DNA of 64,000 bases from an uncultured Prolixibacteraceae bacterium. GTDB lineage: Bacteria; Bacteroidota; Bacteroidia; Bacteroidales; Prolixibacteraceae. Position numbers and translations under genes: made by a program. This document shows, piece after piece, positions 1 through 61,185 of the stretch (position 1 is its first letter; every line of letters begins with the position of its first letter). Location: positions 2,490-66,489 of the forward strand of contig CAWFMB010000035.1 in assembly GCA_963816685.1 (NCBI GenBank), in the 5' to 3' direction. The notes below the pieces were generated by a model. That model was given only the letters and a program-made list of their open reading frames with translations, had not been told where the DNA came from and did no database searches.

Positions 1-1569
1 TGTGGCATTAAAAAAAATCTGTTTTGCCGACTGGTAGTAGCTATCATTTGGTGAATTGCCCAATAAAAAACCAAGCGCCCAAATGGTGCGGCCAAATGAA
101 TCTTCAGATCCAAGTTCATCGAGAAAATCCCTTTTAAAACTCAGGAAATTTCTAAACGTTCCATTGGGATTCTGCATATAATGAATGTAGCTCAAATAAA
201 CAGTAGACAATTCTAGTGAACGTGGGTCTTTTAGTTGTCTGTAATTCATCGTTATCATAAGCAACGCTCTTGCATTATCATCCATACAATACCCTTCCTT
301 TAAATTAGGTATACCAAATTTAGCATGTTGAATTATACCCGTATCATCAGTCATTCTATTGATATGCTTGAGCGAGAAGGAAGGCAAAACCAAAATATCT
401 ATTTCTTTATGGGCTGTTTCTATCTCTTTGGTCGCAACTTTCACAATTTCTTGAGCAACCTTACAGTATTTATCTCCTGTTTTTGGCCAGGTAATACCTA
501 ATCCATAATCATACGCTTTTTGCTTTATTGCATGTAATTCTTCTGGATTACCGAAAAGGCCTAATAATGTCGATGCTAGATCAGTAGGATCGTTAAAATT
601 AAATAATTTCCCTCGTCCATTTGCTAATAATTCCGCCGCATGCCAATAAGGTGTTGATACAACTCCAGCACCTATTCCTACTGCATACGAAAGCGTTCCA
701 CTGGTTATTTGTGCTTCATGCAAATAAGGTGTTATATATATATCACAGGCATATAGGTATTTGAATAATTCTTGCTCGTCAAGAAATTTGTTGAGAAACA
801 CCACATTTTTTTCCACATTAAGGCTTTTTGCCATACGCATAAGAGAAATACGGTATTCCTCGCCCGATTCGCGCAATACATTAGGATGGGTCTTGCCCAA
901 CACAATATAAAGTACATCAGGATGTTTTTTAACAATTTCTGGCAATGCTTTAATAACTGTTTCAACGCCCTTATTTCGACCCAAAAAACCAAAAGTGAAT
1001 AACACTTTCTTTTTTCCAAGTTTAAACTCATTACGGCAAGTTTCTGGTTCAAAATGAATGTCAGGAACGCCATGTTCAATCAGCGAAATTTTTTCTTTTG
1101 GCACATTGTATTCATCTACCAAAAATTCTATTGCCTTATTACTCATAACCACTACTTTATCTGCTATTTGGCAAATTTTACACAATGTCGTTTTTTGGCT
1201 ATACGATGGCGCTTTAAGTATAGTATGCAAAGTAACTATAAGAGGAATTTGTAATTTATGTAATAACGGAAGTATGTAATCGCCATCTCGTCCGCCAAAA
1301 ATGCCAAATTCGTGTTCAAGTATGCAAATATCGGAACCACTCAAGTTTATATATTCTACCGCCTCTAAATAATCTATTTGATGATCTTGTCGAATCACTA
1401 ATTTTACCTCTTCGGGATATTTATATGAAACATCATGGTCACTTAGAGCAACAATAAAACCCTTGTTCTCTTTATAATCACTATTTAAAATTGATTTGTA
1501 TAAATTGTTGGTAAAGGTGCCAATACCACACTCTCTAGGAGGGTAAGAAGCAATAAAAGTAAATTTCAT
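1..1569 (-). CDS. Glycosyltransferase family 4 (group 1) protein, N-terminal 523 aa; 3' end runs off the window start
   Basis: Absent from the ORF track because it has no stop in the window. Hand translation of the minus strand from the ATG (complement of 1567-1569) reads MKFTFIASYPPRECGIGTFTNNLYKSI... and stays open to base 1. GT-B/GT4-like segments are present (ILEHEFGIFGG, LFTFGFLGRNKGVE, TPYLHEAQITSGTLSYAVG). Confidence 0.8.
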   Translation of the reverse strand, partial: MKFTFIASYPPRECGIGTFTNNLYKSILNSDYKENKGFIVALSDHDVSYKYPEEVKLVIRQDHQIDYLEAVEYINLSGSDICILEHEFGIFGGRDGDYILPLLHKLQIPLIVTLHTILKAPSYSQKTTLCKICQIADKVVVMSNKAIEFLVDEYNVPKEKISLIEHGVPDIHFEPETCRNEFKLGKKKVLFTFGFLGRNKGVETVIKALPEIVKKHPDVLYIVLGKTHPNVLRESGEEYRISLMRMAKSLNVEKNVVFLNKFLDEQELFKYLYACDIYITPYLHEAQITSGTLSYAVGIGAGVVSTPYWHAAELLANGRGKLFNFNDPTDLASTLLGLFGNPEELHAIKQKAYDYGLGITWPKTGDKYCKVAQEIVKVATKEIETAHKEIDILVLPSFSLKHINRMTDDTGIIQHAKFGIPNLKEGYCMDDNARALLMITMNYRQLKDPRSLELSTVYLSYIHYMQNPNGTFRNFLSFKRDFLDELGSEDSFGRTIWALGFLLGNSPNDSYYQSAKQIFFNAT

Positions 1570-1673
1570 AGCTAAGAATTTGTTTTGGTTGATATTGAAG
1601 AAAATGTCCGTGATATTGATTTTTTCATTATCAATTTCAAATCACAGACACTTATTGAGTTAACGCAAAGTTG

Positions 1674-1784
1674 CTATTCTGATTTTTTTTCGCGTTTTAC
1701 AGCTTTAGCAGCTCTTTTTTCTTTTAGCAATTTTGCAGGTGCTTTATTGTCGCTTTTAACTTTTGAATCATTTCCTTTTGACAT
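1674..1784 (-). CDS. Possible 36-aa lysine-rich small protein
   Basis: Hand-read ORF ATG..TAG: MSKGNDSKVKSDNKAPAKLLKEKRAAKAVKREKKSE. It lies 105 bp upstream of the GT4 gene on the same strand. Below the track cutoff; no homology recognised. Confidence 0.3.
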   Translation of the reverse strand: MSKGNDSKVKSDNKAPAKLLKEKRAAKAVKREKKSE

Positions 1785-2059
1785 AGTTTTATATTTTTTT
1801 AAATGTACGACAATATTTACGACTTTCCCTTTTTTATTGATATCTGTGCAATATTATAATTGAGCCATTCGCTTCTTAGCTTTGATGCATATATGCCAGT
1901 TACTACAAAGGAATAGATACGCCTATCTTTCATTGGCATAGTCGATCTCTATATTAAATGTTTTATTAATTCTGTTGATAGCTGACTAAAAAAATAGAAA
2001 GGCCAGTTGCTAATAAATATGACTCTTGGCGGTCTGCAAGACCCAGCGAGGAGTCGGTG

Positions 2060-3503
2060 TTAAACTACACCCGCCGGGCTCAGAGCTATAAATTGCAAAT
2101 TGCATTGCGCGGTTCGTGCGGTGCGTTGTCTCCGCTCCTTTCTTGTAATCACCACGGCAATAACATTGGCTGCAGGAAACGCAATCCACAATCCGGTTTC
2201 TTTAAGTTGTGTATGCATGGAAAGCAGATAGGCTGCCGGAAATCGCAATACCCACAATGAAATTATTGCATGAATCATTGAAACAATTGTATTTCCGGTT
2301 CCGCGAAGTGCTCCGTTCAAAGCCATTTACACACCAATGAATCCAAATGACCAGGCCATTATTTTTACGAAATTACTGCTCAACCGGATAGTTTCAGATT
2401 CCCCGGGAATAAAAACCGCACAAATCTGCTGTGCAAAAACATAAATAATGGCACCGGCAATCGTAAGAAAAACAAAACCTGCAAGGCTGCTTAATTTTAG
2501 TACCTAATCTACTCTGTCCGGTTTTCCTGCGCCCATATTTTGTCCCACGAGCGTTGATGTTGCCATTGACAACCCCATTGCCGGAATGATTACAAAACTT
2601 AAAATTCTGCTGCCAATTCTGTAAGCTGCAGCTGTAAGTGTTCCGAAAGTGGTGACTAAAAAAGTCATAACTGTCATTCCAAGCACCCGGGTTGCCTGTT
2701 CAATTGAAGCAGGAAAATCAAGCTTAAACATCTTTTTAATTAAAAAAACATCGGGTTTTAAATCGGAAAGAAAAAGTTGTATCTGGTATTTACCTTTTAT
2801 CAGCAAGATAACTCCAATAATTGCTGCCAAACCTTGAGTAACAATAGTTGCCATTGCAGCGCCGGCAACACCAAAACCGGGAATATTTCCATATCCGAAA
2901 ATAAAAAGCGGATCTAAAAATCAGGTTCAAAAGAACAGTTCCCAGCACTATATAAACCGGTGTTTTTACATCGCCTACTCCCCGCATTAGCGACTGAAAA
3001 ATCATGTAAGTAAACATGAAAATCATGCCTGTAAATGAAATTTGAATATAGGTAACTGCACTTTCATTAACACCGGGTTCTGCACCCTTTAAACCAATCA
3101 GAAACAGCGACAGGGAAAAACCAATTGCAGCAAGTATCAGCGAAATTGTAAAAACCATCATCATGGTTTGTGCAGTGATATGGTTCACCATTTCCTGATC
3201 GTTTCTTCCTTTAAACTAGGCAACCAAAATTGTTCCGGCCATTGCAAGCCCGCCTCCCAGCGAAATAATCAGAAAAATAACGGGAAAACTAATTGAAACC
3301 GCTGCAATTGCATCAGTAACAACACGGCCAAACCAAAATGTATCAGTAAGCTGGTAAGTCGTTTGCAGAATATTGGCAAAAACAATTGGCACCGACAAAG
3401 ATATCAGTGATTTCAATATCGAACCTTCTGTTAATAAGGTATTGTTCCAATCCTCTGAACAGCATTTCAGCTGCAATGTTTTCAACCAAAATTTTCTTTC
3501 CAT
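2060..3503 (-). pseudogene. MATE family efflux transporter, disrupted (3 in-frame stops + 1 frameshift)
   Basis: Track ORFs 3216-3503, 2790-3191, 2504-2854 and 2060-2326 are consecutive pieces of one MATE protein. Hand reading shows four lesions: in-frame TAG at 3216-3218 (..AGTILVA*FKGRNDQEMVNH..), a frameshift in the A5 run near 2916-2920, in-frame TAG at 2504-2506, and in-frame TAA at 2327-2329 (..GFIGV*MALNGALRGTGNT..). Confidence 0.85.
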
Positions 3504-3646
3504 AAAAAAACAATTAAAATCGATTCATATTCCTGTTTAAAAAACTTTTATCAACAATCAGATTTAAAAAGCATTAATTTCTTACCTGCTTTTTTATTAA
3601 TTTTTAATTTCGGCATCTGTACAGTGGATGCTTAATACTTTTAAAG

Positions 3647-4792
3647 ATGAGAAAAAAACCGTCGTATAAAGAGTTGGAAAATCAATTGCAGGAGCTTCGG
3701 AAAACCGGTGAGGAAAAATTCAAACAACTTCTTAAAAATTCGTTTGACATTCTTGTACTGATTGATTCAAACGGGATTCAACATTACGTAAGCGATTCGT
3801 GTGAAAAAATACTGGGCTACAAACCGGAAGAATTAACAAATATTCCGGTCATCGAAAAAATGGTCCATCCCGATGATCAGGAAAAAACAATAGTTGGTTT
3901 AAAAGGAATTCTTCAGAACCACGAATATGGCGGTACGCAATACAGGCACCGGCATAAAAACGGTGGTTGGGTATATTTGGAAGCATTCGGAACAAATCAG
4001 CTGGATAATCCTGCAATAAAATCGGTAGTATTGAATGTCAGGGATATTACCAAAAGAAAAAATGCAGAACAAGCTTTAAAGGAAAGCGAAACCCGGCTGA
4101 GTGAATTGAATGCCACCAAAGATCGCTTTTTTTCAATTATTGCTCACGACATGAAATCACCTTTTCACAGTATCCTGGGATTAAGCGAGCTTTTATCAGA
4201 ACAAATCAGGGAAAACAACTACAAAGGACTTGAAAAATATGCTTCGCTAATTCAAAAGTCATCGCAGCAGGCGCTAAATCTGCTCACTAATTTACTTGAA
4301 TGGTCGCGTTCACAAACAGGCCGGATTGAATTCAATCCTGAATACCTTGAACTGGTAAAACAAATCAATTCAGGCATTGAATTGTTAAATAATTATGCGC
4401 TGCAAAAATCTATTTCAATCACCAAAAATCTACCTGCTTCCATTCCTGTTTTTGCAGATAAGGCGATGACAGAAACTATTTTACGTAATCTTATTTCAAA
4501 TGCGATTAAGTTTACTTCGCCTGGCGGAAAAATAATAATCGGTGCCAAATCAAATCAGAACGAAGTTATAATTTGGGTAAAAGACAATGGTGTGGGAATT
4601 GCAAAAGAAGATGCCGAAAAGTTGTTCCGCATAGATCACAGTCATTCAACACCGGGTACTCAGCGGGAAACAGGAACAGGATTGGGGTTGTTAATCTGCA
4701 GGGAATTTGTTGATTTACACAGCGGCCGGATTTGGGTAGAATCCGAATGTGGAAAAGGAAGCACGTTTTATTTCACCCTCCCTTCGGAATAA
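3647..4792 (+). CDS. PAS domain sensor histidine kinase
   Basis: 381 aa. N-terminal PAS-like region, H-box FFSIIAHDMKSP, and an HATPase_c region with NLISNAIKFT, DNGVGI and GTGLGL boxes. Confidence 0.9.
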   Translation: MRKKPSYKELENQLQELRKTGEEKFKQLLKNSFDILVLIDSNGIQHYVSDSCEKILGYKPEELTNIPVIEKMVHPDDQEKTIVGLKGILQNHEYGGTQYRHRHKNGGWVYLEAFGTNQLDNPAIKSVVLNVRDITKRKNAEQALKESETRLSELNATKDRFFSIIAHDMKSPFHSILGLSELLSEQIRENNYKGLEKYASLIQKSSQQALNLLTNLLEWSRSQTGRIEFNPEYLELVKQINSGIELLNNYALQKSISITKNLPASIPVFADKAMTETILRNLISNAIKFTSPGGKIIIGAKSNQNEVIIWVKDNGVGIAKEDAEKLFRIDHSHSTPGTQRETGTGLGLLICREFVDLHSGRIWVESECGKGSTFYFTLPSE

Positions 4793-6038: not shown

Positions 6039-7376
6039 ATGAAGCGAAGAGACATCTTAAGAAGTTCTGCTTTTCTGCCTTTTATTTCTTTTCCAGCAAT
6101 TGCGGGTAATATTTCTGCAAATGATAAAAGTGAAATCCCGGAAAGATTTAACGGCGATTACAGAAATGTTAAAATCAAAAAAGTAAAATCCATTGTCACT
6201 GCCCCAAACGGTATTGAACTGATTGTAGTTAAAGTGGAAACCAATCAGCCAGGTTTATATGGAGTTGGATGTGCCACTTTCCGGCAGCGGGCAAAGGCAG
6301 TTGCGACAGCTATTGATGAATACCTTGATGATTTTTGCAGGGACCGCGATGTGAACAACATCGAAGACATCTGGCAAACGGCTTATGTAAGTTCATACTG
6401 GCGAAATGGTCCGGTGCTGAACAATGCACTTAGCGGTCTGGACCAGGCTCTGTGGGATATAAAAGGCAAAATGGCCGGTATGCCGGTGTACCAGTTGCTG
6501 GGCGGGAAATGCCGCTTTGCAGTTGATACCTATACACATGCAAGCGGCAGAACTCCGGAAGAAACACTTGAAAGTGTTCAAAATTACATGGAACAAGGTT
6601 TCCGGCATGTCAGGATTCAATTGGGCGGTTATGGCGCCACCCACCTTACCAATGAACCCGATTACAAAAAAAACGGCTTCGGGATGCCTGATGATAATAC
6701 AATGAATGAACATGCCTACTCATCGGGTGTGGTGAAAATGTTCGATTTAGTGCGGCAAAAAGCAGGTGAAGATGTTGAGTTGCTTCATGACATTCATGAA
6801 CGGCTGCAACCAATGGATGCCATCAACCTGATAAAAAACCTTGAACAATACAGGCCTTATTTTATTGAAGATCCATTCTCTCCGGAAAATATCGGCTGGT
6901 TTGAACTGCTGCGCAAACAAACCAGCGTTCCGATTGCAATGGGTGAATTGTATAATAATCCGAACGAATGGCTTGAACCAATGAGCAACAGGATGTTTGA
7001 TTTTATCCGGATACACATTTCACAAATTGGCGGAATTACACCAGCCATGAAAGTAGCCCGTCTGGGTGAATGGTTTAACGTGCGAACAGCCTGGCATGGT
7101 CCCGGCGATGTGTCGCCGATTGGTCATGCGGCTAATGCGCATATCGATTTGGCAGTTTGGAATTTCGGTATTCAGGAGGCGCCGCGAATAAATGACAAAT
7201 TGCGCGAAGTTTTTCCCGGTTCACCAACTGTGAAAAATGGTTTTATGCATGTAAACGAAGCGCCGGGACTGGGAATCGATATTGATGAAAAAGAAGCAGC
7301 AAAATATCCGTTACCGGAATTTAATTACAACTGGACACAGGTACGCAAAAATGACGGAACTGCAATCCGCCCTTAA
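6039..7376 (+). CDS. Enolase-superfamily dehydratase, D-mannonate dehydratase (ManD)/RspA-like, with Tat signal
   Basis: 445 aa. N-terminus MKRRDILRSSAFLPF. The core IEDIWQTAYVSSYWRNGPVLNNALSGLDQALWDIKGKMAGMPVYQLLGG closely resembles the RspA/ManD subgroup. Confidence 0.8.
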   Translation: MKRRDILRSSAFLPFISFPAIAGNISANDKSEIPERFNGDYRNVKIKKVKSIVTAPNGIELIVVKVETNQPGLYGVGCATFRQRAKAVATAIDEYLDDFCRDRDVNNIEDIWQTAYVSSYWRNGPVLNNALSGLDQALWDIKGKMAGMPVYQLLGGKCRFAVDTYTHASGRTPEETLESVQNYMEQGFRHVRIQLGGYGATHLTNEPDYKKNGFGMPDDNTMNEHAYSSGVVKMFDLVRQKAGEDVELLHDIHERLQPMDAINLIKNLEQYRPYFIEDPFSPENIGWFELLRKQTSVPIAMGELYNNPNEWLEPMSNRMFDFIRIHISQIGGITPAMKVARLGEWFNVRTAWHGPGDVSPIGHAANAHIDLAVWNFGIQEAPRINDKLREVFPGSPTVKNGFMHVNEAPGLGIDIDEKEAAKYPLPEFNYNWTQVRKNDGTAIRP

Positions 7377-7421
7377 ATGATGCCAACGATACTGAATACT
7401 AATGTCCTAATATTATAAAAG

Positions 7422-8441
7422 ATGGAAACACGTCGGAAATTCATAAAAAAAACAGCAGCTTTTTCAGTGGCAGGAGTGCTTTCAAACTGGGCTTTTAATG
7501 CATTTGGGCAAGATCGCCTTGGTGAAGTTTTGCCACAACGGCAACTTACACGTAATGGTGAAAAAGTAACTTCATTTACTTTGGGCGGTTATCATTCTGC
7601 CAAATCTTTAAATCCGGCACAGTCGGAAGAACTACTTGAACGTGCAATTGAACTTGGTGTACGTTTCTTCGATAATGCCCGTGGTTATCACAGTGGAACT
7701 GCAGAAGAATATTACGGCAGATTTTTGACTCCGAAATACCGCGATGACATTTTTCTGATGACAAAATCGCACGGAAAATCAAAGGAAGAAGTTCAAAATC
7801 ATCTGGGCGAATCTTTGCAGGCAATGAAAACTGACCACCTTGATTTGTGGACTATTCATACCATTTCGTCCATTGAAGATGCGGATCGTCGAATTAATCA
7901 GGGCGTTCTCGATTATTTTCTTGAAGCAAAAGAAAAGGGGAAAACCCGGTATATTGGATTTAGTTGCCATACCAATCCGAAAGTAGCACTTTATTTTCTG
8001 GATTTTCTTGATAAAAGAGGAATTGAACTGGATACATGCCAGTTTCCTGTAAATGTTTGTGATGCAAGTTTTGAATCTTTCCAAAAACAACTGCTACCTG
8101 TTTTACTTGAAAAAAAATATGGTATTGTTGCAATGAAAACAATGGCTGGCGGTGGAATTATCGGCCGCCGGTTCGATCTGACACCCGCTGAATTTAAGGA
8201 TGAAGAAATCAAAAACATTACAAAGGAAAGTGCAGTTACCATGGATCAGTTGCACCAGTATGTATATTCTTATCCGGTTTCAACGCTTGTCAGCGGTTGC
8301 GAAAACGTTCAGGAACTGGAACATAACGTTGATATTTTGAAAGGTCTAAACAAACTGTCAGAAGCAGAAATGGAGAAAATTGCTGAACTTGCACAGCCCT
8401 TTGCCGGCAGATTTGCAGAGCATTACAAACGTATTTTATAA
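7422..8441 (+). CDS. Aldo/keto reductase with Tat signal
   Basis: 339 aa. METRRKFIKKTAAFSVAGVL signal; AKR-like FFDNARGYHSGTAEEYYG and DLWTIH motifs. Confidence 0.85.
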   Translation: METRRKFIKKTAAFSVAGVLSNWAFNAFGQDRLGEVLPQRQLTRNGEKVTSFTLGGYHSAKSLNPAQSEELLERAIELGVRFFDNARGYHSGTAEEYYGRFLTPKYRDDIFLMTKSHGKSKEEVQNHLGESLQAMKTDHLDLWTIHTISSIEDADRRINQGVLDYFLEAKEKGKTRYIGFSCHTNPKVALYFLDFLDKRGIELDTCQFPVNVCDASFESFQKQLLPVLLEKKYGIVAMKTMAGGGIIGRRFDLTPAEFKDEEIKNITKESAVTMDQLHQYVYSYPVSTLVSGCENVQELEHNVDILKGLNKLSEAEMEKIAELAQPFAGRFAEHYKRIL

Positions 8442-23609: not shown

Positions 23610-26600
23610 ATGAAAAAACTTGACTTATTCTTTAAAACATTAAAACAAAGTATTCTTGTACTATTGTTTATTTTATTTGTCAGCCTTACTGCTTTTTCGC
23701 AAAGTGGCACTGCCAATTTTGACTTTCTGGGATTAGCAGGAGGAGGAACCGATGGAAGTGACGGTGTATCCGTTACGATACTGGATTGTAATTCAGTAAT
23801 TACAGATTTTACAGTTGAGCTAACCAGCAACAACTATTCTCACGATCCATACATTGTGAAAATTGTATCGCCTGATGGTACCACTTTTGCTGTAGATGAT
23901 ACGACGCACAAAACCGGAATTCCTTTTACTGTTACATCCATTACAGAACCCGGGGGCGAATGGGCTGTTTTTGTTTCTGAACCTATTTCTCCGATTAGAC
24001 CTACCGGAAACTCAGCAACTGTTCAAATGGATTATGATTATGTTGCCAGTCCGGGAGTTGTAGCGCGTTGCAAAGACGAAATTACCGTTTACATTGATTC
24101 ATTCGGAGTCGGACGAACAAATCCTTTGTTCGTGGATAACGGCTCAACAGGTTGCAACCTTGTTTTAACTATTGACAATACTTATTACGGGTGTCAGGAT
24201 ATTCCTGACGATGTTGTTCATCTTACAGCAACTGATGCAATTTCAAATGAAACTTCAACCTGTACAACAAATGTCGTTGTTCGAGATACGATAAAACCTT
24301 CCGCCAATTGTAAGGATATTACTGTGCAGTTGGATGCCAGCGGAGTTGCATCAATCACCGCAGCTGAAATTGACAATCTTTCAACAGATGGTTGCGGAAT
24401 TGCTTCCACATCCATTGATGTTACAACTTTTGACTGTACAAACATTGGCGCAAACCCTGTGGTTTTAACAGTAACAGACAATAATGGAAATTCACAAACC
24501 TGTACTGCTTCCGTAACTGTAGAAGATGTTACACCACCAACAGCTGTTTGCCAGGATATAACTGTGCAACTGGATGTAAATGGTGAAGCAACCATTGCCG
24601 CAGCAGATTTGGATAACGGTTCTTCAGATTTATGCGGAACAGTGACATTTACAGCTGATGTTACTCAATTTGATTGTACAAACATTGGTGCTAATACAGT
24701 GACTTTAAATGTTGCCGATGAATCGGATAACACCAGCACCTGTACTTCTACCGTTACCGTTGAAAATAACAATACTCCCACTGCAGTTTGTAAAGACATT
24801 ACTGTTCAGCTGGATGTAAACGGTGATGCAACCATTGCTGCAGCGGATATTGACAATGGCTCTTCGGCTGTGTGTAATACCAATCTGACGATTGATGTTT
24901 CACAGTTTGATTGCTCAAATACAGGTCCAAATACAGTTGAATTAACAGTATCGGATAATGATGGCAATTCAAGTACCTGCTCTTCAACTGTTACAGTTGA
25001 AGATAATGTTGTACCTACAGCAGTTTGCAAAGATATAACTGTTCAACTTGATGCAACTGGAGCAGCTACTATTGCTGCGGCTGATATTGACAATGGTTCA
25101 ATGGATGCCTGTGGAGTTGCATCAATTGCAATTAATCCTTCACTGTTTGATTGTGCAGATGTTGGTTCAAATACAGTTACTCTTACAGTAACCGATAACA
25201 ACAACAATACAGCCACCTGTACTTCTACCGTAATGGTTGAAGACACTACAGCACCAACAGCAGTTTGCCAGGATATTACAATTCAACTGGATACAAATGG
25301 TGAAGCAACGATTACAGCTGCTGATGTTGACAATGGATCAACCGATCTTTGCGGAAATGTTACTCTGGATATTGATGTTACTCAATTCGACTGTGCCAGT
25401 GCCGGCGCCAATACCGTAACATTAACAGTAACCGACGAATCAGAAAATACAAGCACCTGTACTTCTACCGTAATGGTTGAAGACACTACAGCACCAACAG
25501 CAGTTTGCCAGGATATTACAGTTCAACTTGACACAAATGGTGAAGCAACAATTACAGCTTCCGATGTCGATAACGGTTCTTCTGATCTCTGCGGGAATGT
25601 CAATTTGGATGTTGATGTTACTCAATTCGACTGTGCCAGTGCCGGCGCCAACATCGTAACATTAACAGTAACCGACGAATCAACAAATACAAGCACCTGT
25701 ACCTCTACCGTTACTGTGGAAAACAACAACATTCCAATAGCTATTTGTATGGACATAACGGTAGAACTCGACGATAATGGCGAAGCAACCATTGCAATGG
25801 AAGATATTGATGGTGGTTCTTCTGCAGTTTGCGCCGATGCAATAGTAATTGAACCGATGCAGTTTGACTGTACAAATGTTGGCTCAAATACTGTTACCCT
25901 TACAATCAACGATTTGCAGGGAAATTCTTCTCAATGTACATCAAATGTTACTGTCAATGACAACACACCTCCGCAGGTAGTTGCAAAAAACATTGAAGTT
26001 TGCCTTGATGATAACGGAAGCTATTCACTCTCTCCTGATGAAGTTGATGCAGGGACACTTGATAATTGTTCAATTCAGGAAATGACTGTTACTCCTGCAG
26101 AATTCAGTTGTGCCGACATCGGCGAAAATGAAGTTACTCTAATGGCAACCGATGCAAATGGCAACTCAGCTTCAGTAACTGTTAACGTAACGGTTAAGGA
26201 TTGTACAGCACCGGTTATTAATTGTTCACCACTTACTGTTTACCTGTATGAAAATGGCAAATATGTACTGACCAAAAAGAACATTCAGGCGATTTCAAAA
26301 GGTAACGATGAAACAGGACTTACTACCGATAATTGTACACCGTATGCTGAAATGGATATCCAGGTGTTCCCGCGCTCGTTTGAATGTGTGCATGTTGGAA
26401 CTCCGGTATCAGTTACCATCTCGGCAACCGATGCTTCAGGAAATACAGGAACCTGCAAGACCACTGTTACTGTACTCGACACGATTTCGCCAGTGGTACA
26501 CTGTGTTGATACTTTAAATGTGTATCTCGATGAAAATGGAAGTGCACGAATTTTTGCAGGAAATCTTGTGGATAAAACTGCCGAAAATGTGGATGATGCC

Positions 26601-48565: not shown

Positions 48566-48597
48566 TTTGCAGCAATACCTGCTTTTTTCTACTTTTG
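48566..48597 (+). promoter_or_regulatory. Bacteroidota sigma-A type promoter of the polysaccharide locus
   Basis: TTTG (48566-48569) - N20 - TACTTTTG (48590-48597), 38 nt upstream of the upxY-like ATG. Fits the TTTG/TAnnTTTG consensus and spacing. Confidence 0.55.
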
Positions 48598-48634: not shown

Positions 48635-49159
48635 ATGAGTACGCTGAATCCCAATTGCAAATTGTGGCATGTCATATACACCCGGTCAAGGGCTGAAAAA
48701 AAGGTCCACGTTGATCTAACTGCACAGGGTATTGAATGTTTTTTGCCGCTTCAAAAAAAGCTCCGGCAGTGGAAAGACCGTAAAAAATGGATAGAAACTC
48801 CATTGATTTCCGGCTACTGTTTTGTTAATATCAGCAAAACTGAATTCGATAAAGTATTGCAAACCGATAATGTAGTATGTTATATTACATTTGACGGAAA
48901 GGCAGCCGTGATTCCGGAAAGGCAGATCAATTTTCTCAAACAAATGATGCACCAGTCGGAATTTGAGGTAACCGTATCGCACAAAAATTTTGAACCCGGC
49001 CAGAAGGTTGAAATAATTGCCGGACCATTAATTGGTCTGCGGGGTGAACTTGTAGAAGCCCGCGGCAAACAAAAATTCATTCTGCGTTTCGAACAAATTA
49101 ACCAGATTTTTACAATTGAAGTGTCGGCTAATAATCTTAGTTATTTGCCTTCGGAATAG
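48635..49159 (+). CDS. UpxY family NusG-like transcription antiterminator
   Basis: 174 aa. WHVIYTRSRAEKKV..L..QGIECFLPL (NGN domain) plus a KOW-like GQKVEIIAGPLIGLRGELVE. First gene of the polysaccharide locus. Confidence 0.85.
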   Translation: MSTLNPNCKLWHVIYTRSRAEKKVHVDLTAQGIECFLPLQKKLRQWKDRKKWIETPLISGYCFVNISKTEFDKVLQTDNVVCYITFDGKAAVIPERQINFLKQMMHQSEFEVTVSHKNFEPGQKVEIIAGPLIGLRGELVEARGKQKFILRFEQINQIFTIEVSANNLSYLPSE

Positions 49160-53716: not shown

Positions 53717-55027
53717 ATGAATCCTACTAAAAACTTTCTTGAAAAAATAGAACAGAATACTGAGGTTGTCGGAGTTATCGGGCTCGGATATGTCGGGCTT
53801 CCGCTGGCAGTTAATTTTGCCGAAGCGAAAGTAAAAGTTATCGGTTTCGATAAAAATCAGGACAAAGTAGACCGGATTAACCGGGGCGACAATTATATCG
53901 GCGACATTCGCGATGCGGTTCTTAAAGAAGTGGTCGATAATGTATCCCTTTCTGCCACTACCGATTTCTCAAGAATGAATGAATGTGATGCACTGCTCAT
54001 TTGCGTCCCCACTCCTCTCGATCGTTTCCGTAAACCGGATATGAGTTACATCGAAAGCGCATGCACCGATATTGGAAGGCACATGAAAACCGGAACATTC
54101 ATCAGTCTCGAAAGCACAACTTATCCAACCACTACCGAAGATTTAATGCTTCCGATAATTGAAAAAGAGAGTGGCCTCAAACACGGTGTTGATTTCTGGC
54201 TGGCTTACTCACCAGAACGTGTCGATCCTGGAAACAAGTCGTTTCACACCCGCAATACACCAAAAGTACTGGGAGCGATGACTGAAGAAGGAAAACAGAT
54301 TGGAGAAGCACTGTATAAAAAGGCAATTGACAACATTCACACCGTCAGCTCACCACGTGTTGCCGAAATGGTAAAAATCCTTGAAAATACTTACCGGCTC
54401 ATCAACATCAGTTTGATTAACGAACTGGCGCTGCTTTCCGGAAAAATGGATATCAACATCTGGGAAGTGATTGAAGCGGCCAAAACAAAACCCTTCGGCT
54501 TCCAGGCATTTTACCCCGGACCGGGAATTGGCGGCCACTGCATCCCCCTCGATCCATTTTACCTGGAGCATATTGCCAAACGGTTCGATTTTGACCTGAG
54601 CATGATTCACGCTGCAGGACATATTAACATGCGGATGCCCCATTACATGTACATAAAAATTGCCACTGCCCTTAACCGGCACAAAAAAGCAGTAAACGGC
54701 AGCAACATCCTGTTCCTCGGTGTTGCCTACAAACCCAATATCAACGACGAGCGCGAATCACCAGCCCTTGAAATTATTGATATAACCCTTCACAAAGGCG
54801 GACTTGCAAAATACCACGACCCGTTCATTCCCCGGATTAAAACACACGAAGGAAATATTCTGAATTCAATCGAGCTGAATGAAGAAACTTTGCAACAGGC
54901 AGATTGTGTGGTGTTAACGACCAATCATGACGCTTTTGATGTGGAATTTATACAACAGCATGCAAAAATGATTGTGGATATGCGGAATATGATTAAGGAA
55001 GGAAACGAAAAGGTATATAAATTGTAG
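53717..55027 (+). CDS. Nucleotide-sugar dehydrogenase (UDP-N-acetyl-hexosamine dehydrogenase type)
   Basis: 436 aa. VIGLGYVGLPLA Rossmann motif and the catalytic-Cys region GPGIGGHCIPLDP. Confidence 0.9.
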   Translation: MNPTKNFLEKIEQNTEVVGVIGLGYVGLPLAVNFAEAKVKVIGFDKNQDKVDRINRGDNYIGDIRDAVLKEVVDNVSLSATTDFSRMNECDALLICVPTPLDRFRKPDMSYIESACTDIGRHMKTGTFISLESTTYPTTTEDLMLPIIEKESGLKHGVDFWLAYSPERVDPGNKSFHTRNTPKVLGAMTEEGKQIGEALYKKAIDNIHTVSSPRVAEMVKILENTYRLINISLINELALLSGKMDINIWEVIEAAKTKPFGFQAFYPGPGIGGHCIPLDPFYLEHIAKRFDFDLSMIHAAGHINMRMPHYMYIKIATALNRHKKAVNGSNILFLGVAYKPNINDERESPALEIIDITLHKGGLAKYHDPFIPRIKTHEGNILNSIELNEETLQQADCVVLTTNHDAFDVEFIQQHAKMIVDMRNMIKEGNEKVYKL

Positions 55028-56131
55028 TTCCTGCTGTACTGGCTTAAGATGACTAACGGCTCGGTAAACTTTTGAATGCTTTTCCCTATATTAGCAGTAT
55101 CAAACTCCCCTTGGAGGCTTGGGGGTAAAAAACGATGGAAAAGGATCATCATAACTCCTCCGCTGCCCCTGACCCCCAAAGGGTGAGGCTAACGCACAAA
55201 AAGCCGATGTATAAATAAAGAAATACATAATATCATAATTCAAAAACGTTTGAATGCTGTTCTCTATATCAGCAGAGTCAAACTCCCCCCTGGGGGCTTG
55301 GGGGTAAAAAAGGAGGAAAATCATCATACCTCCTTCGCTACCCCTGTCCCCCAAGGGGTGAAGCCAACGCACAAAAAGCCGATGTATAAATAAAGAAATA
55401 CATAATATCATAATTCAAAAACGTTTGAATGCTGTTCTCTATATCAGCAGAGTCAAACTCCCCCTTGGGGGCTTGGGGGTAAAAAAAGGAGGAAAATCAT
55501 CATACCTCCTTCGCTACCCCTGTCCCCCAAGGGGTGAAGCCAACGCACAAAAAGCCGATGTATAAATAAAGAAATACATAATATCATAATTCAAAAACGT
55601 TTGAATGCTGTTCTCTATATCAGCAGAGTCAAACTCCCCCTTGGGGGCTTGGGGGTAAAAAAAGGAGAAAAATCATCATACCTCCTTCGCTACCCCTGTC
55701 CCCCAAGGGGTGAAGCCAACACACAAAAAGCCGATGTATAAATAAAAAATACATAATATCATAATTCAAAAACGTTTGAATGCTGTTCTCTATATCAGTA
55801 GTGTCAAACTCCCCCTTGGGGGCTTGGGGGTAAAAAACGATGGAAAAGGATCATCATAACTCCTCCGCTACCCCTGACCCCCAAGGGGTGAAGCCAACGC
55901 ACAAAAGTCCGATGTTGTAAATAAAGAAATACATAATATCGTAATTCAAAAAAATTTGAATGCTGTTCTCTATATCAGCAGAGTCAAACTCCCCCTTGGG
56001 GGCTTGGGGGTAAAAAGAAGGAGAATCATCATCATACCTCTTTCGCTACCCCTGTCCCCCAAGGGGTGAAGCCAACGCACAAAAAGCCGATGTATAAATA
56101 AAGAAATACATAATATCATAATTCAAAAACG

Positions 56132-56777
56132 TTTGAATGCTTTTCCCTATATCAGCAGAGTCAAACTCCCCCTTGGGGGCTGGGGGTAAAAAGAAGGAGA
56201 ATCATCATAATACCTCCTTCGCTACCCCTGTCCCCCAAGGGGTGAAGCTAACGCACAAAAAATAGTAAATAAACCAGGTATTGCAAATTCAACCGCTTTC
56301 CCCTGAAATCTGGTGCAAAATTTCTGCATATGAATGATGAATTAGCCAAATCAATGTATTACGGAGCCACACCTTCAACATTAAAAAAAGCATGGCAACT
56401 TCGTAATAAAATGACATCGGCTGAAGAATTACTCTGGGAAAAATTAAAGGGAAAGCAAATTTGTAACGTAAGGTTCCGCAGACAGCATCCTATATATTTA
56501 TATATTGTTGACTTTTATTGTCATCCTGCAAAATTAGTTATTGAATTGGACGGCAAATATCATTTAAGAACAAAAAAAGAAGATAGGGAAAGAACTGAAC
56601 AATTAAAGTCTCTTAACCTTGATGTAATTCGTTTTACAAACGATAAAGTTGAAACCAATATAAATAAAGTACTTGAAGAAATTACTTTAAAAGTCAAACA
56701 TCGTTTGGAAATCAATTCTTAAGATTTCAAGTGAGTAAGAATAAAGAGTAATCACATAATATCATAATTCAAAAACG
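56132..56777 (+). mobile_element. Long repeat unit carrying DUF559 gene (candidate selfish cassette), copy 1
   Basis: It shares about 130 nt at the 5' end and about 35 nt at the 3' end with the short units. An insert of about 470 bp holds the ORF. The insert is bounded by AAATAAA (56267-56273) and AATAAAG (56740-56746). Unit ends are TTTGAAT ... ATTCAAA. Confidence 0.4.
56330..56722 (+). CDS. DUF559 (Vsr/PD-(D/E)xK-fold) endonuclease-like protein
   Basis: 130 aa. LRNKMTSAEELLWEKLK...FRRQHPIYLYIVDFYCHPAKLVIELDGKYH....D..R...L...LDVIRFTNDKV is the DUF559 signature. Confidence 0.85.
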   Translation: MNDELAKSMYYGATPSTLKKAWQLRNKMTSAEELLWEKLKGKQICNVRFRRQHPIYLYIVDFYCHPAKLVIELDGKYHLRTKKEDRERTEQLKSLNLDVIRFTNDKVETNINKVLEEITLKVKHRLEINS

Positions 56778-57130
56778 TTTGAATGCTTTTCTCTATATCA
56801 GCAGTGTCAAACTCCCCCTGGGGGCTGGGGGTAAAAGAAGGAGAATCATCATAATACCTCCTTCGCTACCCCTGTCCCCCAAGGGGTGAGGCCAACGCAC
56901 AAAAAGCCGATGTTATAAATAAAGAAATACATAATATCATAATTCAAAAACGTTTGAATGCTGTTCTCTATATCAGCAGAGTCAAACTCCCCCTTGGGGG
57001 CTTGGGGGTAAAAAGAAGGAGAATCATCATCATACCTCCTTCGCTACCCCTGTCCCCCAAGGGGTGAAGCCAACGCACAAAAGTCCGATGTTGTAAATAA
57101 AGAAATACATAATATCATAATTCAAAAACG

Positions 57131-57803
57131 TTTGAATGCTTTTCCCTATATCAGCAGAGTCAAACTCCCCCTTGGGGGCTGGGGGTAAAAAGAAGGAGAA
57201 TCATCATAATACCTCCTTCGCTACCCCTGTCCCCCAAGGGGTGAAGCCAACGCACAAAAAATAGTAAATAAACCAGGTATTGCAAATTCAACCGCTTTCC
57301 CCTGAAATCTGGTGCAAAATTTCTGCATATGAATGATGAATTAGCCAAATCAATGTATTACGGAGCCACACCTTCAACATTAAAAAAAGCATGGCAACTT
57401 CGTAATAAAATGACATCGGCTGAAGAATTACTCTGGGAAAAATTAAAGGGAAAGCAAATTTGTAACGTAAGGTTCCGCAGACAGCATCCTATATATTTAT
57501 ATATTGTTGACTTTTATTGTCATCCTGCAAAATTAGTTATTGAATTGGACGGCAAATATCATTTAAGAACAAAAAAAGAAGATAGGGAAAGAATTGAACA
57601 ATTAAAGTCTCTTAACCTTGATGTAATTCGTTTTACAAACGATAAAGTTGAAACCAATATAAATAAAGTACTTGAAGAAATTACTTTAAAAGTCAAACAT
57701 CGTTTGGAAATCAATTCTTAAGATTTCAAAGTGAAGGTAATCACATAAAAAATTAAAGTATAAATAAAAAAGCACATAATATCGTAAATCAAATTCAAAA
57801 AAA
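57131..57803 (+). mobile_element. Long repeat unit carrying DUF559 gene, copy 2
   Basis: Offset by exactly 999 bp from copy 1 through the ORF (57329 versus 56330). The 3' flank is more diverged. Confidence 0.4.
57329..57721 (+). CDS. DUF559 endonuclease-like protein, second copy
   Basis: 130 aa. Differs from the 56330 copy at a single residue (T89I). Confidence 0.85.
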   Translation: MNDELAKSMYYGATPSTLKKAWQLRNKMTSAEELLWEKLKGKQICNVRFRRQHPIYLYIVDFYCHPAKLVIELDGKYHLRTKKEDRERIEQLKSLNLDVIRFTNDKVETNINKVLEEITLKVKHRLEINS

Positions 57804-58230
57804 TCTGAATGCTTTTCCCTATATCAGCAGTGTCAAACTCCCCCTTGGGGGCTGGGGGTAAAAAGAAGGAGAATCATCATCATACTTCCTTCGCTACCCC
57901 TGTCCCCCAAGGGGTGAAGCCAACGCACAAAAGTCCGATGTTGTAAATAAAGAAATACATAATATCGTAATTCAAAAAAATTTGAATGCTGTTCTCTATA
58001 TCAGCAGAGTCAAACTCCCCCTTGGGGGCTTGGGGGTAAAAAAAGGAGGAAAATCATCATACCTCCTTCGCTACCCCTGTCCACCAAGGGGTGAAGCCAA
58101 CGCACAGGGATTTTGGGGTAATCGCTAAAAGATACATAAAGAGAAAAATACAAAAACAAATTCATCATTTTGAAATACTATTCCCAATATAAGGGATTTC
58201 AAACTCCCCCTCCGGGGGTTGGGGGGCTAT

Positions 58231-60036
58231 ATGACCATTGAAGCCTGGCTTACACTCGCCATCCTGCTTTACATTGTAGTAGCATTTCTTACTGAAATGC
58301 TGCGTCCCGGATTGATTCTTTTCAGTGCGGCAGTTATATTTATGGCTACAGGAATCATTACAGCAGAGGAATTGATTGCAGGATTCTCCAACAACGGAGT
58401 AGTTACTATCGTCGTGTTGTTTCTTGTTAATGAAGGGATAAAGCAATCGGGCCTCATTACCCGGCTGGCACAGGCATGGCTTCCCCGTAAGAAAAACCCA
58501 ATGCCCTTTCTGCTTCCCCGGATTATGATTCCGGTGGCTTTTCTTTCAGCATTTCTGAATAACCTGCCGATGGTAGTGAACATCACCCCACTGCTCATTA
58601 AATGGGCCGACCTGATGAAACTTTCTTACAAGAAGTTCCTCATTCCCCTCTCCTATGCCGCTATCTTTGGAGGAATGTGTACACTTATTGGCACATCATC
58701 CAACCTTGTGGTGCATGGATTGATGCTTGAAAACGGATTTCGCGGTTTACACCTGTTCGAACTGGCAAAAGTGGGCGGCTTCATTTCTCTTATCGGCTTT
58801 ATTTATATTGCTGTTTTTGGCAACCTGTTACTTCCCGGTAAAAAGATAAAAATAAGCCAGCAAAATGCAGATGTAAAAGATTATTACTACAACCTTATAC
58901 TTACTTCTGACAGTAAATTTACCGGCCAATCTATTTCAGGAAAACGAATCCCCGGACTAAACGGATTAACAATACAATCCATCGAACGAAACGGAAAGTT
59001 AATTCGACCAGGCAAATTAAATGATTTGAAGTTGCGTGCAGATGACCACATCCTTGTGGCAGGCAGCGCTGACCGCATGAATTATATCCTCGCGCACAAG
59101 GATGTAAGACTAGCAGGAATCGAGTATCTTGAAAACGCTGATCCCGCCAAATTAAAACAATATGAAGCAGTACTCTCGCCCCGTTTTGCCGGTCTTGGAC
59201 AAACAATCAAGGAATACAACTTTTTCGAACATTTTAATGCTGTAGTGCTTGCAGTGCATCGAAATGGCGAACGCATATCTGCCAATCTGAACAACCTGAA
59301 ACTAAAGGTGGGTGACAATGTGGTTTTACTGGCAACAGAAAAGTTTGAAGAGATTTGGAGTACGTCCCGTATTTTTTACCTTGTCAACTATGTGCGCGAT
59401 TACCGGCAGGAAAAAAGCACCCGTAAAAAATGGCTGGCCCTTTTTATTTTACTGGCAATGGTGGCAGGCATTGTTATCAATGAAATTGTCTCCTACGGAT
59501 ACGGCATGCGGCTCAACATCTTCTATTTTGTAGCCTTTGCTGCCATTTTGCTTGTATGGCTGAAAATCCTCCCACACCAGAATTATACAAAGGCGGTGAG
59601 CTGGGATTTCATCGTCAGCATTGCATCGGCTTTTGCTGTAAGCCGCGCCATTCAAAATGCAGGAATGGCAGAAATCCTTGCCAAAGATGCAATCGGAATT
59701 GTGAAGTCACTGGGGCCGGCGGGCGTTTTGGCTATCATTTATCTTTTAACAGCCATACTTACAGAAATAATTACAAACAATGCAGCCGTTGCCCTTGTAT
59801 TTCCCATTGCAGTAGTAGCCGCGCAAATACTGGGTGCCGATGCAAAACCATTTTTTGTAGCCATTGCCATTGCAGGCGCTTCAAGCTTTATGACTGCCAG
59901 GGGATATCGTGCCAACCTCATTATAAAATCCATCGGAAAATATTCCCATCGCGATTTTCTGCTTATTGGTGCCCCAATGCAGGTCATCGCATTTATAATC
60001 AGTGTCTGGCTTATTCCATATTTCTGGAACTTTTAA
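58231..60036 (+). CDS. SLC13/DASS family anion permease with two central TrkA-C domains (candidate sulfate transporter)
   Basis: Transmembrane halves flank two TrkA-C-like segments (..LTIQSIERNGKLIRPG..DHILVAG.. and ..AVVLAVHRNGERI..GDNVVLLAT..). I use the ATG at 58231 (MTIEAWLTL) rather than the track's TTG at 58219. Confidence 0.8.
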   Translation: MTIEAWLTLAILLYIVVAFLTEMLRPGLILFSAAVIFMATGIITAEELIAGFSNNGVVTIVVLFLVNEGIKQSGLITRLAQAWLPRKKNPMPFLLPRIMIPVAFLSAFLNNLPMVVNITPLLIKWADLMKLSYKKFLIPLSYAAIFGGMCTLIGTSSNLVVHGLMLENGFRGLHLFELAKVGGFISLIGFIYIAVFGNLLLPGKKIKISQQNADVKDYYYNLILTSDSKFTGQSISGKRIPGLNGLTIQSIERNGKLIRPGKLNDLKLRADDHILVAGSADRMNYILAHKDVRLAGIEYLENADPAKLKQYEAVLSPRFAGLGQTIKEYNFFEHFNAVVLAVHRNGERISANLNNLKLKVGDNVVLLATEKFEEIWSTSRIFYLVNYVRDYRQEKSTRKKWLALFILLAMVAGIVINEIVSYGYGMRLNIFYFVAFAAILLVWLKILPHQNYTKAVSWDFIVSIASAFAVSRAIQNAGMAEILAKDAIGIVKSLGPAGVLAIIYLLTAILTEIITNNAAVALVFPIAVVAAQILGADAKPFFVAIAIAGASSFMTARGYRANLIIKSIGKYSHRDFLLIGAPMQVIAFIISVWLIPYFWNF

Positions 60037-60296: not shown

Positions 60297-60536
60297 ATGC
60301 TTATCACACCATTTTCTAAACATATATTTTGGTCATATAAAAAGGATGCAGATTTGCCCGATAATATTATTATAAAACAGGTAATTGCATTTGGGGAAAT
60401 TCCTGATCTCCTGCTGATAAAGGATTTATTTTCAAAAGAAAAGATTTATTCTGTACTGGAAAACTGGACAAACAAAGATCAATATAAAAAAAGGATCAAT
60501 TTTATTGAAAAAGTTATCCTCCATGACCAACAATAA
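60297..60536 (+). CDS. Small protein upstream of AbiEii gene (possible cognate partner)
   Basis: 79 aa. The IFWSYKKDADLPDN..IIKQVIAFGEIPDLLLIKDLF pattern resembles the small domain often found beside Bacteroidota AbiEii genes (possibly DUF6922, unverified). Overlaps the next gene. Confidence 0.45.
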   Translation: MLITPFSKHIFWSYKKDADLPDNIIIKQVIAFGEIPDLLLIKDLFSKEKIYSVLENWTNKDQYKKRINFIEKVILHDQQ

Positions 60537-61185
60537 CATAAATACAGACTTTATATCTGAAGGGACACGCAACATTTTTGCAATGCTTGAAAACCAGAAT
60601 TTTATTAAAAAATATACATTGGTGGGAGGCACAGCACTTGCACTTCAAATTGGGCACCGGATGTCTGAAGATTTGGATTTTATTTATGATGGAGATAAAT
60701 TAAATACAACAACAATAAAGAGAAATATGGCGAAAGTCTTCCCTGGGTATAAAATCATTCGCCAGGAAGACGACTGGCATATTGATTTTATAGTTCAAAA
60801 CATTAAAGTAACCTTCTTTTCTTCAGGCGCAATAGTAGTACCTTTTAATATAATTGAACATTCCTTTCAGCATCAAAACATTAATATTTGTCCTGCCAAA
60901 ATAATAGCATCATTAAAAATGGCAGCGATTGCACAAAGAAACACCATTCGCGATTATTACGATCTCTATTTTATAGCCCGTTACAATTTTCCGCTTAAAG
61001 AAATAATTGAACAAACACAACAGCTTATTCCCGGATTATCACCGGTTACCTACACCGAAACACTTGTTTATACCGATGATATTGATGAAAACTCAATCCG
61101 TGAGCATTTAAACCCCAAAGAACAGATTACTAAAACTGAAATTGCACACTGGTTTGTTGAAGAACTAAAACGAATTATAACATAA
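60523..61185 (+). CDS. Nucleotidyltransferase AbiEii/AbiGii toxin family protein
   Basis: LVGGTALALQIGHRMSEDLDF is the characteristic motif. The track ORF begins at a TTG at 60505; the first ATG is at 60523. Confidence 0.75.
   Translation: MTNNNINTDFISEGTRNIFAMLENQNFIKKYTLVGGTALALQIGHRMSEDLDFIYDGDKLNTTTIKRNMAKVFPGYKIIRQEDDWHIDFIVQNIKVTFFSSGAIVVPFNIIEHSFQHQNINICPAKIIASLKMAAIAQRNTIRDYYDLYFIARYNFPLKEIIEQTQQLIPGLSPVTYTETLVYTDDIDENSIREHLNPKEQITKTEIAHWFVEELKRIIT

Follow-up and report, generated by a model that had tools for sequence, protein, structure and literature searches.

Introduction

The element described here has its closest described relatives among the repetitive extragenic palindromes (REPs) and bacterial interspersed mosaic elements (BIMEs), with their REP-associated tyrosine transposases (RAYTs), the Rickettsia palindromic elements (RPEs), the miniature inverted-repeat transposable elements (MITEs) such as Correia/NEMIS, RUP and ERIC, and the Vsr-fold homing endonucleases. 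We analysed a stretch of 64,000 nucleotides from an uncultured Prolixibacteraceae bacterium (GCA_963816685.1, contig CAWFMB010000035.1, positions 2,490 to 66,489), called the window hereafter and used for all coordinates that carry no locus number (L numbers designate related loci). In this assembly, 12 head-to-tail units of 175-180 bp each extend over 3.2 kb between two genes of a polysaccharide locus. Each unit contains two inverted copies of a ~28-nt motif, and open reading frames (ORFs) for a DUF559 nuclease occur within the array. The array is genuine and unusual in size. We interpret it, with a probability of about 0.7, as the local tandem amplification of a selfish REP/BIME- or MITE-like palindromic DNA element linked to a Vsr-fold DUF559 nuclease.

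REP clusters can be tandemly reiterated together with flanking DNA (PMC3733652), and this is one of several features shared with the present family. Both consist of a short G+C-rich imperfect palindrome repeated across genomes, form inverted doublets that fold as long hairpins, occur in clusters of alternating orientation with short and long linkers, and are accompanied by a dedicated nuclease-type gene that is itself flanked by the repeat. However, the GTAG/CGTC tag of REPs is absent here, the motif ending in CAAACT... and ...GGGGGGC, and the linked gene encodes a Vsr-fold DUF559 protein rather than a Y1 transposase (RAYT). The one Y1_Tnp gene seen, in the closest relative (L120 20683-21213), has no flanking motif. 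In addition, members of the present family also occur inside genes, its distribution is limited to Bacteroidota, and the 177-bp unit is much longer than that of BIME-2.

RPEs are likewise selfish palindromes found in frame in coding genes and translated as tolerated surface or linker peptides. They lack an associated ORF, measure 100-150 bp and are confined to Rickettsia, whereas the solo motif of the present family is ~28 nt long, whole nuclease cassettes are nested in frame, and the window copies are intergenic. The short units resemble MITEs as ORF-less internal-deletion derivatives of 100-200 bp with inverted ends, and by analogy they may be able to alter the transcription of neighbouring genes. 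Contrary to MITEs, they show no recognisable target-site duplication, their gene-bearing partner has no known transposase, and an array of 12 head-to-tail copies is atypical.

A homing endonuclease of a group I intron, I-Bth0305I (Vsr-fold, EDxHD), belongs to the Vsr/DUF559 clade and is encoded by a small nuclease gene (PMC3424549). The likeness extends to a presence/absence polymorphism at a fixed site, seen here between species, to nesting in essential genes without destroying them, and, judging from the alignment, to catalytic D, ExD and H residues that are invariant in the DUF559 ORFs. On the other hand, Rfam detects no intron carrier, no intein-like junctions are apparent by eye, the host protein and the ORF share one continuous reading frame, and the DUF559 cassette is bounded by a conserved palindromic motif. 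Literature searches for DUF559, for the motif sequences and for in-frame palindromic elements in Bacteroidetes returned no description of such a family, which is not proof that none exists elsewhere.

Architecture of the array

The string T[TC]TGAATGC occurs 12 times in the window, solely at the 12 unit starts listed in the initial annotation. Tandem Repeats Finder (TRF) detects arrays with a period of 176-178 at 55066-56261 (6.8 copies, 92% matches) and 56740-57260 (2.9 copies, 94%). Unit 1 begins at 55071, confirming a distance of 43 nt from the end of the upstream dehydrogenase ORF at 55027. On the + strand, the array consists of seven units (u01-u07, 55071-56259, starting at 55071, 55249, 55424, 55600, 55775, 55955 and 56132), a DUF559-bearing linker (56260-56777), three units (u08-u10, 56778-57258, starting at 56778, 56953 and 57131), a second DUF559-bearing linker (57259-57803) and two units (u11 and u12, 57804-58106), the last of them truncated after ...GAAGCCAACGCACA. 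A unique A-rich linker of 61 nt (58107-58167) then leads to a half-unit made of a linker 3' end and a forward motif (58168-58228), directly 5' of the ATG of an SLC13 gene at 58231. The DUF559 ORF of the first linker (56330-56722, 130 aa, PF04480 E = 8e-35) fills a linker slot, with a reverse motif at 56225-56242 before it and a forward motif at 56814-56831 after it; the product of the second ORF (57329-57721) differs by one amino acid. All 12 units have the same orientation.

Unit-to-unit identity ranges from 82 to 99%, with unit 1 as the outlier, and thus does not reach the uniform level above 90% estimated by eye beforehand. The units form the similarity groups {2,3,4,12}, {6,9}, {7,10} and {1,5}. 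Indels in A runs, to which most differences had been attributed, do occur, but the units also carry four variants of the inner stem-loop, in non-periodic order. Positions 56095-56730 and 57094-57729 are identical at 634 of 636 positions (99.7%) with an offset of 999 bp, which points to a recent higher-order duplication, and TRF reports a super-period of 351 bp. A 52-nt repeat family has 13 members in the window, including a diverged one at 58174-58225. The core motif has 11 matches in the window, all inside the array, compared to none in 100 shuffled sequences. As initially noted, there are no unique spacers: the units are contiguous and homologous over their full length and the window has no cas genes, which distinguishes the array from a CRISPR locus. 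It is also correct that no cas, transposase, integrase or reverse-transcriptase gene lies near the array, but the relevant partner, the DUF559 nuclease, lies inside it.

Anatomy of the unit and its hairpin

Each unit is composed of a 5' segment (TTTGAATGC...CAGAGT), a forward motif (CAAACTCCCCCTTGGGGGCTTGGGGGTA), an inner segment, a reverse motif (TACCCCTGTCCCCCAAGGGGTGAAGCC) and an A/T-rich linker, and the succession of forward motif, inner segment (36-40 nt), reverse motif and linker (~100 nt) recurs 12 times over. Both arms of the resulting long hairpin of ~75 nt derive from the ~28-nt motif (CAAACTCCCCC-loop-GGGGG-NN-GGGGG), whose forward and reverse copies pair with each other. In the module at 55453-55544 (+ strand), for example, the forward motif TCAAACTCCCCCTTGGGGGCTTGGGGGTA and the reverse motif TACCCCTGTCCCCCAAGGGGTGAAGCC enclose a 35-nt inner stem-loop. 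The fold of the whole unit is predicted at -60.7 kcal/mol, with z = -6.5 on the + strand and -5.5 on the - strand. The inner segment forms its own small stem-loop in the window genome but is unrelated and unstructured in the related loci L121 and L122; the run of T5-T7 that follows it on the - strand is not conserved in relatives either.

The two arms are not exact reverse complements, as seen in the window (55453-55544), L121 (8705-8806), L122 (3941-4030) and L128 (5765-5877). In the forward arm, the G runs are separated by CTT, CC, TC or TT; in the reverse arm, the C runs are separated by T[GT]T or TGG in every case. The mismatch of the arms is conserved, as if the two ends were functionally distinct. 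A Vsr-type T:G mismatch in the internal loop of the hairpin was considered and dropped, T·G being present only in the window genome and C·T or T·T in L121 and L122. A small - strand ORF of ~16 aa (AAGGAGGT-ATGATG...TGA) was rejected by inspection, since indels shift its frame and its stop between unit variants.

A motif distributed across Bacteroidota

The initial annotation did not recognise that the hairpin arms belong to a phylum-wide motif. Scanning 185,579 species genomes with the pattern CAAACTCCCCCN{2,4}GGGGGN{1,4}GGGGG matched at least 119 stretches. Among the matches listed, 79 of the 80 titled loci belong to Bacteroidota, with representatives of Bacteroidales, Flavobacteriales, Sphingobacteriales, Cytophagales, Chitinophagales and Saprospirales; the lone exception, from Opitutae, is a shorter, chance-like match. 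The consensus in the scanned genomes, (C)AAACTCCCCC-TTYA-GGGGG-YY-GGGGGGC, describes a short imperfect palindrome with a 5-bp G:C stem, present in several copies per genome in some metagenome-assembled genomes. No match was found in 2.9 million viral contigs. Metagenome scans with the lineage-specific reverse arm gave 0 matches and then three weak, unrelated-looking ones.

Among the matches listed, the motif occurs solo, in doublets of a reverse and a forward copy separated by a spacer of 11-140 bp (~75 cases), immediately 5' of start codons, and inside coding regions, to which it contributes in-frame Pro/Gly-rich peptides such as QTPPLGGWGA and SPLTPKGG. Solo 28-nt motifs in either orientation lie in frame in flexible linkers at L058 7357-7702, L021 3973-4120 and L116 3182-3335; the host proteins are E2 acyltransferases and a MeaB-like GTPase, and the added peptides include SPLTPEGG and QTPPSGAGG. 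In the listed loci of other classes, the only repeat that contains the motif is a 68-bp unit present 2.3 times, suggesting that large arrays are a trait of the window lineage.

Association with DUF559 nuclease genes

In the 119 motif-selected loci listed, tblastn with the window DUF559 protein identified seven DUF559 genes (35-45% identity), and all seven are preceded by a reverse motif and followed by a forward motif. The converse approach, in which DUF559 loci were picked by protein similarity alone (L122-L124 and L128-L134, 52-69% identity), likewise yielded genes bracketed by the motif. In fact, the motif brackets DUF559 in every Bacteroidota DUF559 locus inspected (n = ~17), while the PDDEXK_3 nuclease genes of L124 have no flanking motif.

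The window ORFs match PF04480 with 119.4 and 116.5 bits (gathering threshold 20.6 bits), and the closest solved structure is 3HRL, an endonuclease-like protein of Neisseria (E = 1e-17). Residues D61, E72, D74, H78, R88, R101 and N104 are invariant in 12 homologues of 35-67% identity, nested copies included. From this conservation, the DUF559 proteins look functional. Members of the closest subfamily (57-69% identity) were found in 8 loci, every one of them a polysaccharide locus and mostly with the gene directly behind wzz, and a second subfamily (52-53% identity) lies between tandem MacB/FtsX paralogues. A phage origin was rejected, with the motif absent from the viral contigs and weak DUF559 matches in PHROG and PADLOC. 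Proteins annotated as 'DUF559 domain-containing protein' are ~14-fold enriched among predicted inversion targets (PMC9881135), as expected for genes with flanking inverted repeats.

In five of the seven motif-selected DUF559 loci, the whole cassette lies in frame inside a host gene. The methionyl-tRNA synthetase (MetRS) of L112 is a single ORF of 923 aa (1352-4123) with the cassette at ~2097-2642, between ...DLDWGIKVP and GKVLYVWFDAPIGY, and L051 has a cassette (~7251-7723) at the same MetRS site. In L117, the cassette is found just ahead of the B12-binding domain of MetH (17-2032), and those of L087 and L094 lie within two further host ORFs. The host ORFs of L112, L051 and L117 are uninterrupted, so that translation of the enzyme apparently includes the nuclease domain. 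A group I/II intron or an intein carrying the nested DUF559 was rejected, as no intron model was detected in 10 loci, the ORFs are read through and no intein-like junctions were recognised by eye.

The short units as deletion derivatives

Segments bounded by a reverse motif and the forward motif that follows it were aligned with and without DUF559. The short form corresponds to the long form minus an internal stretch of ~480 nt: the gene-less units align as the left 37 nt plus the right ~85 nt of the DUF559-bearing unit, and retain the 18-nt leader (GAAGCCAACGCACAAAAA) and the ~85-nt trailer (...TATAAATAAAGAAATACATAATATCATAATTCAAAAACGTTTGAATGC...CAGAGT). In L121, DUF559 occupies the same place in its array, right after ...GAAGCCCGCACAC. 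The 177-bp units are thus internal-deletion derivatives of the DUF559-bearing element. Their inverted ends, lack of coding capacity and descent from a longer gene-bearing element are the features by which MITE-type elements are recognised.

The same site in relatives

Judging from its SLC13 homologues, the window belongs to Marinilabiliales and is close to Mariniphaga, Maribellus and Draconibacterium. The interval between the dehydrogenase and SLC13 genes was compared in two relatives, as the initial annotation had proposed, and this comparison revealed both an empty and an occupied site. L120, whose SLC13 protein is 95% identical and whose synteny is shared from UpxY to CysC, has a 165-bp spacer with only a half-unit beside the ATG. 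L121 (SLC13 78% identical) has a 181-bp unit repeated 4.5 times, then DUF559 and 1.3 further units up to the ATG, ~5.8 units in all; the arms are homologous to those of the window, while inner and linker sequences are different. The site is therefore polymorphic, occupied or empty between species. The window half-unit at 58168, orthologous to L120 9940-10000, had been described as a degenerate partial copy ending 2 nt before the SLC13 ATG. Its presence and position hold, but as it is common to the window and L120 it is an older shared relic rather than a decayed array end. Other relatives have chains of 1-2.5 units and duplicated DUF559 genes, as in L122 with a 625-bp period.

Another tandem array in L121 (13337-14382) comprises six copies of a 174-bp unit that joins ~130 bp from the end of an epimerase coding sequence, stop codon included, to a motif variant (CCACTCCCCTCCTTTGGAGGGGCTGGGGGAGGT), indicating that the motif can be tandemly reiterated with flanking gene sequence. 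More intergenic arrays are found at L121 1-908, L120 16739-17678 and L130 10698-12157, with unit types of 143-178 bp (containing AATAAGA heptamers and an inverted repeat of 11 bp), 384 bp (2.5 copies) and 486 bp (3 copies). A period of 174-181 bp recurs in three unit sequences of L121 and the window that are unrelated to one another, and we have no explanation for this.

RNA structure, promoters and terminators

RNAalifold, applied to 12 hairpin modules that represent six lineages, gives a consensus of 18 almost invariant pairs, with one compensatory change and a covariation term of +0.5. The hairpin loop varies between 9 and 60 nt and is non-homologous between lineages. Invariant arms, non-homologous loops, occurrence in both orientations and copies in coding regions suggest that what is conserved is a sequence recognised as DNA or by a protein, not an RNA fold. 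At Rfam 15 gathering thresholds, no family matching the unit was found in the window or in 28 related loci, in agreement with the earlier view that the unit is not a curated family. A permissive threshold on the window returned sub-threshold noise of the miRNA-hairpin type, and the only other Rfam match in the window and related-loci scans was one unrelated SAM-II riboswitch.

No TAnnTTTG or TTTG..TAnnTTTG box is present in the units on either strand. A promoter array was rejected, the only matches in the array region being antisense within the DUF559 ORFs, at chance frequency. The sigma-70 consensus does not apply to Bacteroidota, and sigma-70-type matches were discarded as A/T-rich noise. 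On the + strand, no terminator-like site was found in the array.

Origin of the array and alternative explanations

A DUF559-associated selfish element multiplying in tandem was among the options initially listed, and it agrees with the deletion-derivative alignment, with the motif-bracketed DUF559 genes elsewhere and with the occupied or empty site in relatives. In this interpretation, the full element would comprise the DUF559 ORF with its short leader and trailer, bracketed by copies of the ~28-nt G5/C5 motif, which in the window lineage would be organised as long hairpin modules. The 177-bp units would represent the gene-deleted, non-autonomous form, similar to MITEs or REPINs, and the window array would be a head-to-tail chain of 12 copies, two with the gene and ten without it. 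The family may have spread at the DNA level with the aid of the nuclease, through homing-like repair of breaks or through structure-specific nicks in the hairpin, as suggested by the invariable physical linkage, the Vsr-fold homing precedent (PMC3424549) and the enrichment among inversion targets (PMC9881135). The higher-order structure, the mosaic of unit variants and the diverged edge unit suggest that copy number grew, and still changes, by unequal homologous recombination or replication slippage rather than by 12 separate insertions. Effects on the operon, through RNA hairpins in a 3.2-kb untranslated gap, would be a by-product.

Several observations weigh against this interpretation. To our knowledge, DUF559 has not been demonstrated to act as a transposase or homing enzyme for the motif. 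No mobility event was observed, and no target-site duplication could be recognised by inspection at the array ends or at the MetRS and MetH insertions. The arrangement of ORF and arms varies: it is mostly '< ORF >' (reverse motif, ORF, forward motif), including in the window and other classes, but '> ORF <' or '> ORF >' in L124 (6025-6471), L122 (5320-5830) and L128 (5945-6400), so that the cassette architecture is not fixed. The confinement of the closest DUF559 subfamily to polysaccharide loci could mean a host-related role rather than pure selfishness. Finally, the motif is rare in the window lineage outside the array, with no further copy in ~61 kb of the window and one each in L120 and L121, and the family is therefore not obviously proliferating in the window genome.

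A more far-reaching proposal is that Bacteroidota DUF559 proteins are the mobility nucleases of an unrecognised class of hairpin-ended cassettes, a REP/RAYT-like system with a Vsr-fold PD-(D/E)XK enzyme replacing the Y1 transposase, phylum-wide, nesting in frame, shedding solo motifs and seeding arrays in polysaccharide loci. We put it forward tentatively and regard it as rather doubtful. Under this proposal, cassettes would nest in MetRS and MetH with the Pro/Gly-coding motif serving as a built-in linker, 28-nt solo motifs would be shed into coding linkers and 5' regions, and in Marinilabiliales the cassettes would home into polysaccharide loci, where insertion beside their own hairpins would seed arrays.

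The array might instead serve the host as a cis element comparable to the BIMEs of E. coli, with stacked hairpins acting on polycistronic RNA or on DNA topology. It could uncouple the expression of the sulfate-activation genes from that of the export genes (wza, wzz, dehydrogenase), shield upstream mRNA from 3' exonucleases, or bind nucleoid proteins or gyrase. Its place at the junction of two functional blocks, in a locus that is headed by UpxY and runs on one strand, is compatible with such a role, as are the very stable hairpins, the T5-T7 run after the inner stem-loop on the - strand, the array at the same junction in two species and the consistent polysaccharide-locus setting of the closest DUF559 subfamily. 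However, the inner stem-loop and T-run are confined to the window genome, the corresponding segment of L121 and L122 being unrelated and unstructured, and a copy number ranging between 0 and 12 is typical for neutral or selfish repeats. At this site the closest relative lacks an array, and there is neither a terminator-like site on the + strand nor a TAnnTTTG box in the units. A host-serving cis element is thus unlikely, and the last three findings also speak against a transcription-insulating module, another option raised initially, as the selected function. An array of structured RNAs, each unit encoding or releasing a functional hairpin RNA, was the remaining option. The fold z-scores on both strands and the conservation of the arms between lineages would suit it, but a compensatory change in one of 18 consensus pairs, loops that share no homology between lineages, motif copies in both orientations relative to genes and within coding sequences, the lack of an Rfam family in the window or the 28 related loci and the lack of a promoter consensus in the units render it very unlikely.

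Assemblers can create features of the kind seen in the near-perfect 636-bp duplicate, so that the copy number or the 999-bp duplication could in principle be artefactual. We consider this highly improbable, as the units have individual substitutions, indels and four inner-loop variants in non-periodic order, and as an independent contig of another species has a homologous array at the same junction, with short chains at other loci. Still more improbable is an invertible, phase-variable switch in which the inverted motif pairs are recombination sites that flip linker or DUF559 segments. Inverted repeats do flank every linker and every inner segment in the window, and the ~14-fold enrichment of DUF559 concerns predicted programmed-inversion targets (PMC9881135), but the 12 units do not differ in orientation, the window contains no invertase or recombinase gene near the array, and the units have no canonical promoter for inversion to toggle.

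The Bacteroidota-wide, DUF559-tied motif with its in-frame nesting in essential genes deserves follow-up. If the proposed link is correct, the DUF559 family would gain a concrete role as partner of a phylum-wide palindromic repeat, and a Bacteroidota counterpart with another enzyme would be added to the REP/RAYT and RPE paradigms. Annotation is affected as well: many predicted proteins gain QTPPLGGWGA-like peptides from solo motifs, and some housekeeping enzymes enclose whole nuclease domains. Arrays of this type break short-read assemblies, and many DUF559 contigs in the protein database are shorter than 3 kb. Together with the surrounding toxin-antitoxin genes, the elements mark recombination-prone junctions of polysaccharide loci and may matter for capsule diversification.

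Neighbouring genes and other repeats

As initially described, the flanking genes are all on the + strand, with a UpxY-family antiterminator at the locus head (48635-49159, NF033644, 164 bits). The UpxY gene is preceded by a consensus TTTG..TAnnTTTG promoter at 48566-48597. Wza- and Wzz-like genes are also found upstream of the array, and AbiEii, CysQ and CysC genes downstream. The left neighbour of the array encodes a nucleotide-sugar dehydrogenase (53717-55027, + strand, TIGR03026). On the right, the gene for an SLC13/CitMHS permease with TrkA_C domains (58231-60036, + strand) is the first of the CysQ/CysC sulfate-activation set.

Between SLC13 and CysQ, the window has an AbiEii-type toxin gene (PF08843) and a small upstream ORF (60297-61185). 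L120 has no AbiEii gene, and its SLC13-CysQ gap measures 115 bp. The polysaccharide loci of relatives are rich in small genes, including NTP_transf_2/HEPN, PIN, PemK, YoeB, PDDEXK_3 and 23S_rRNA_IVP. Elsewhere in the window, six copies of a 240-bp (80-aa) repeat with ~70% identity at 24416-25831 probably represent a repeated domain inside a large coding sequence.

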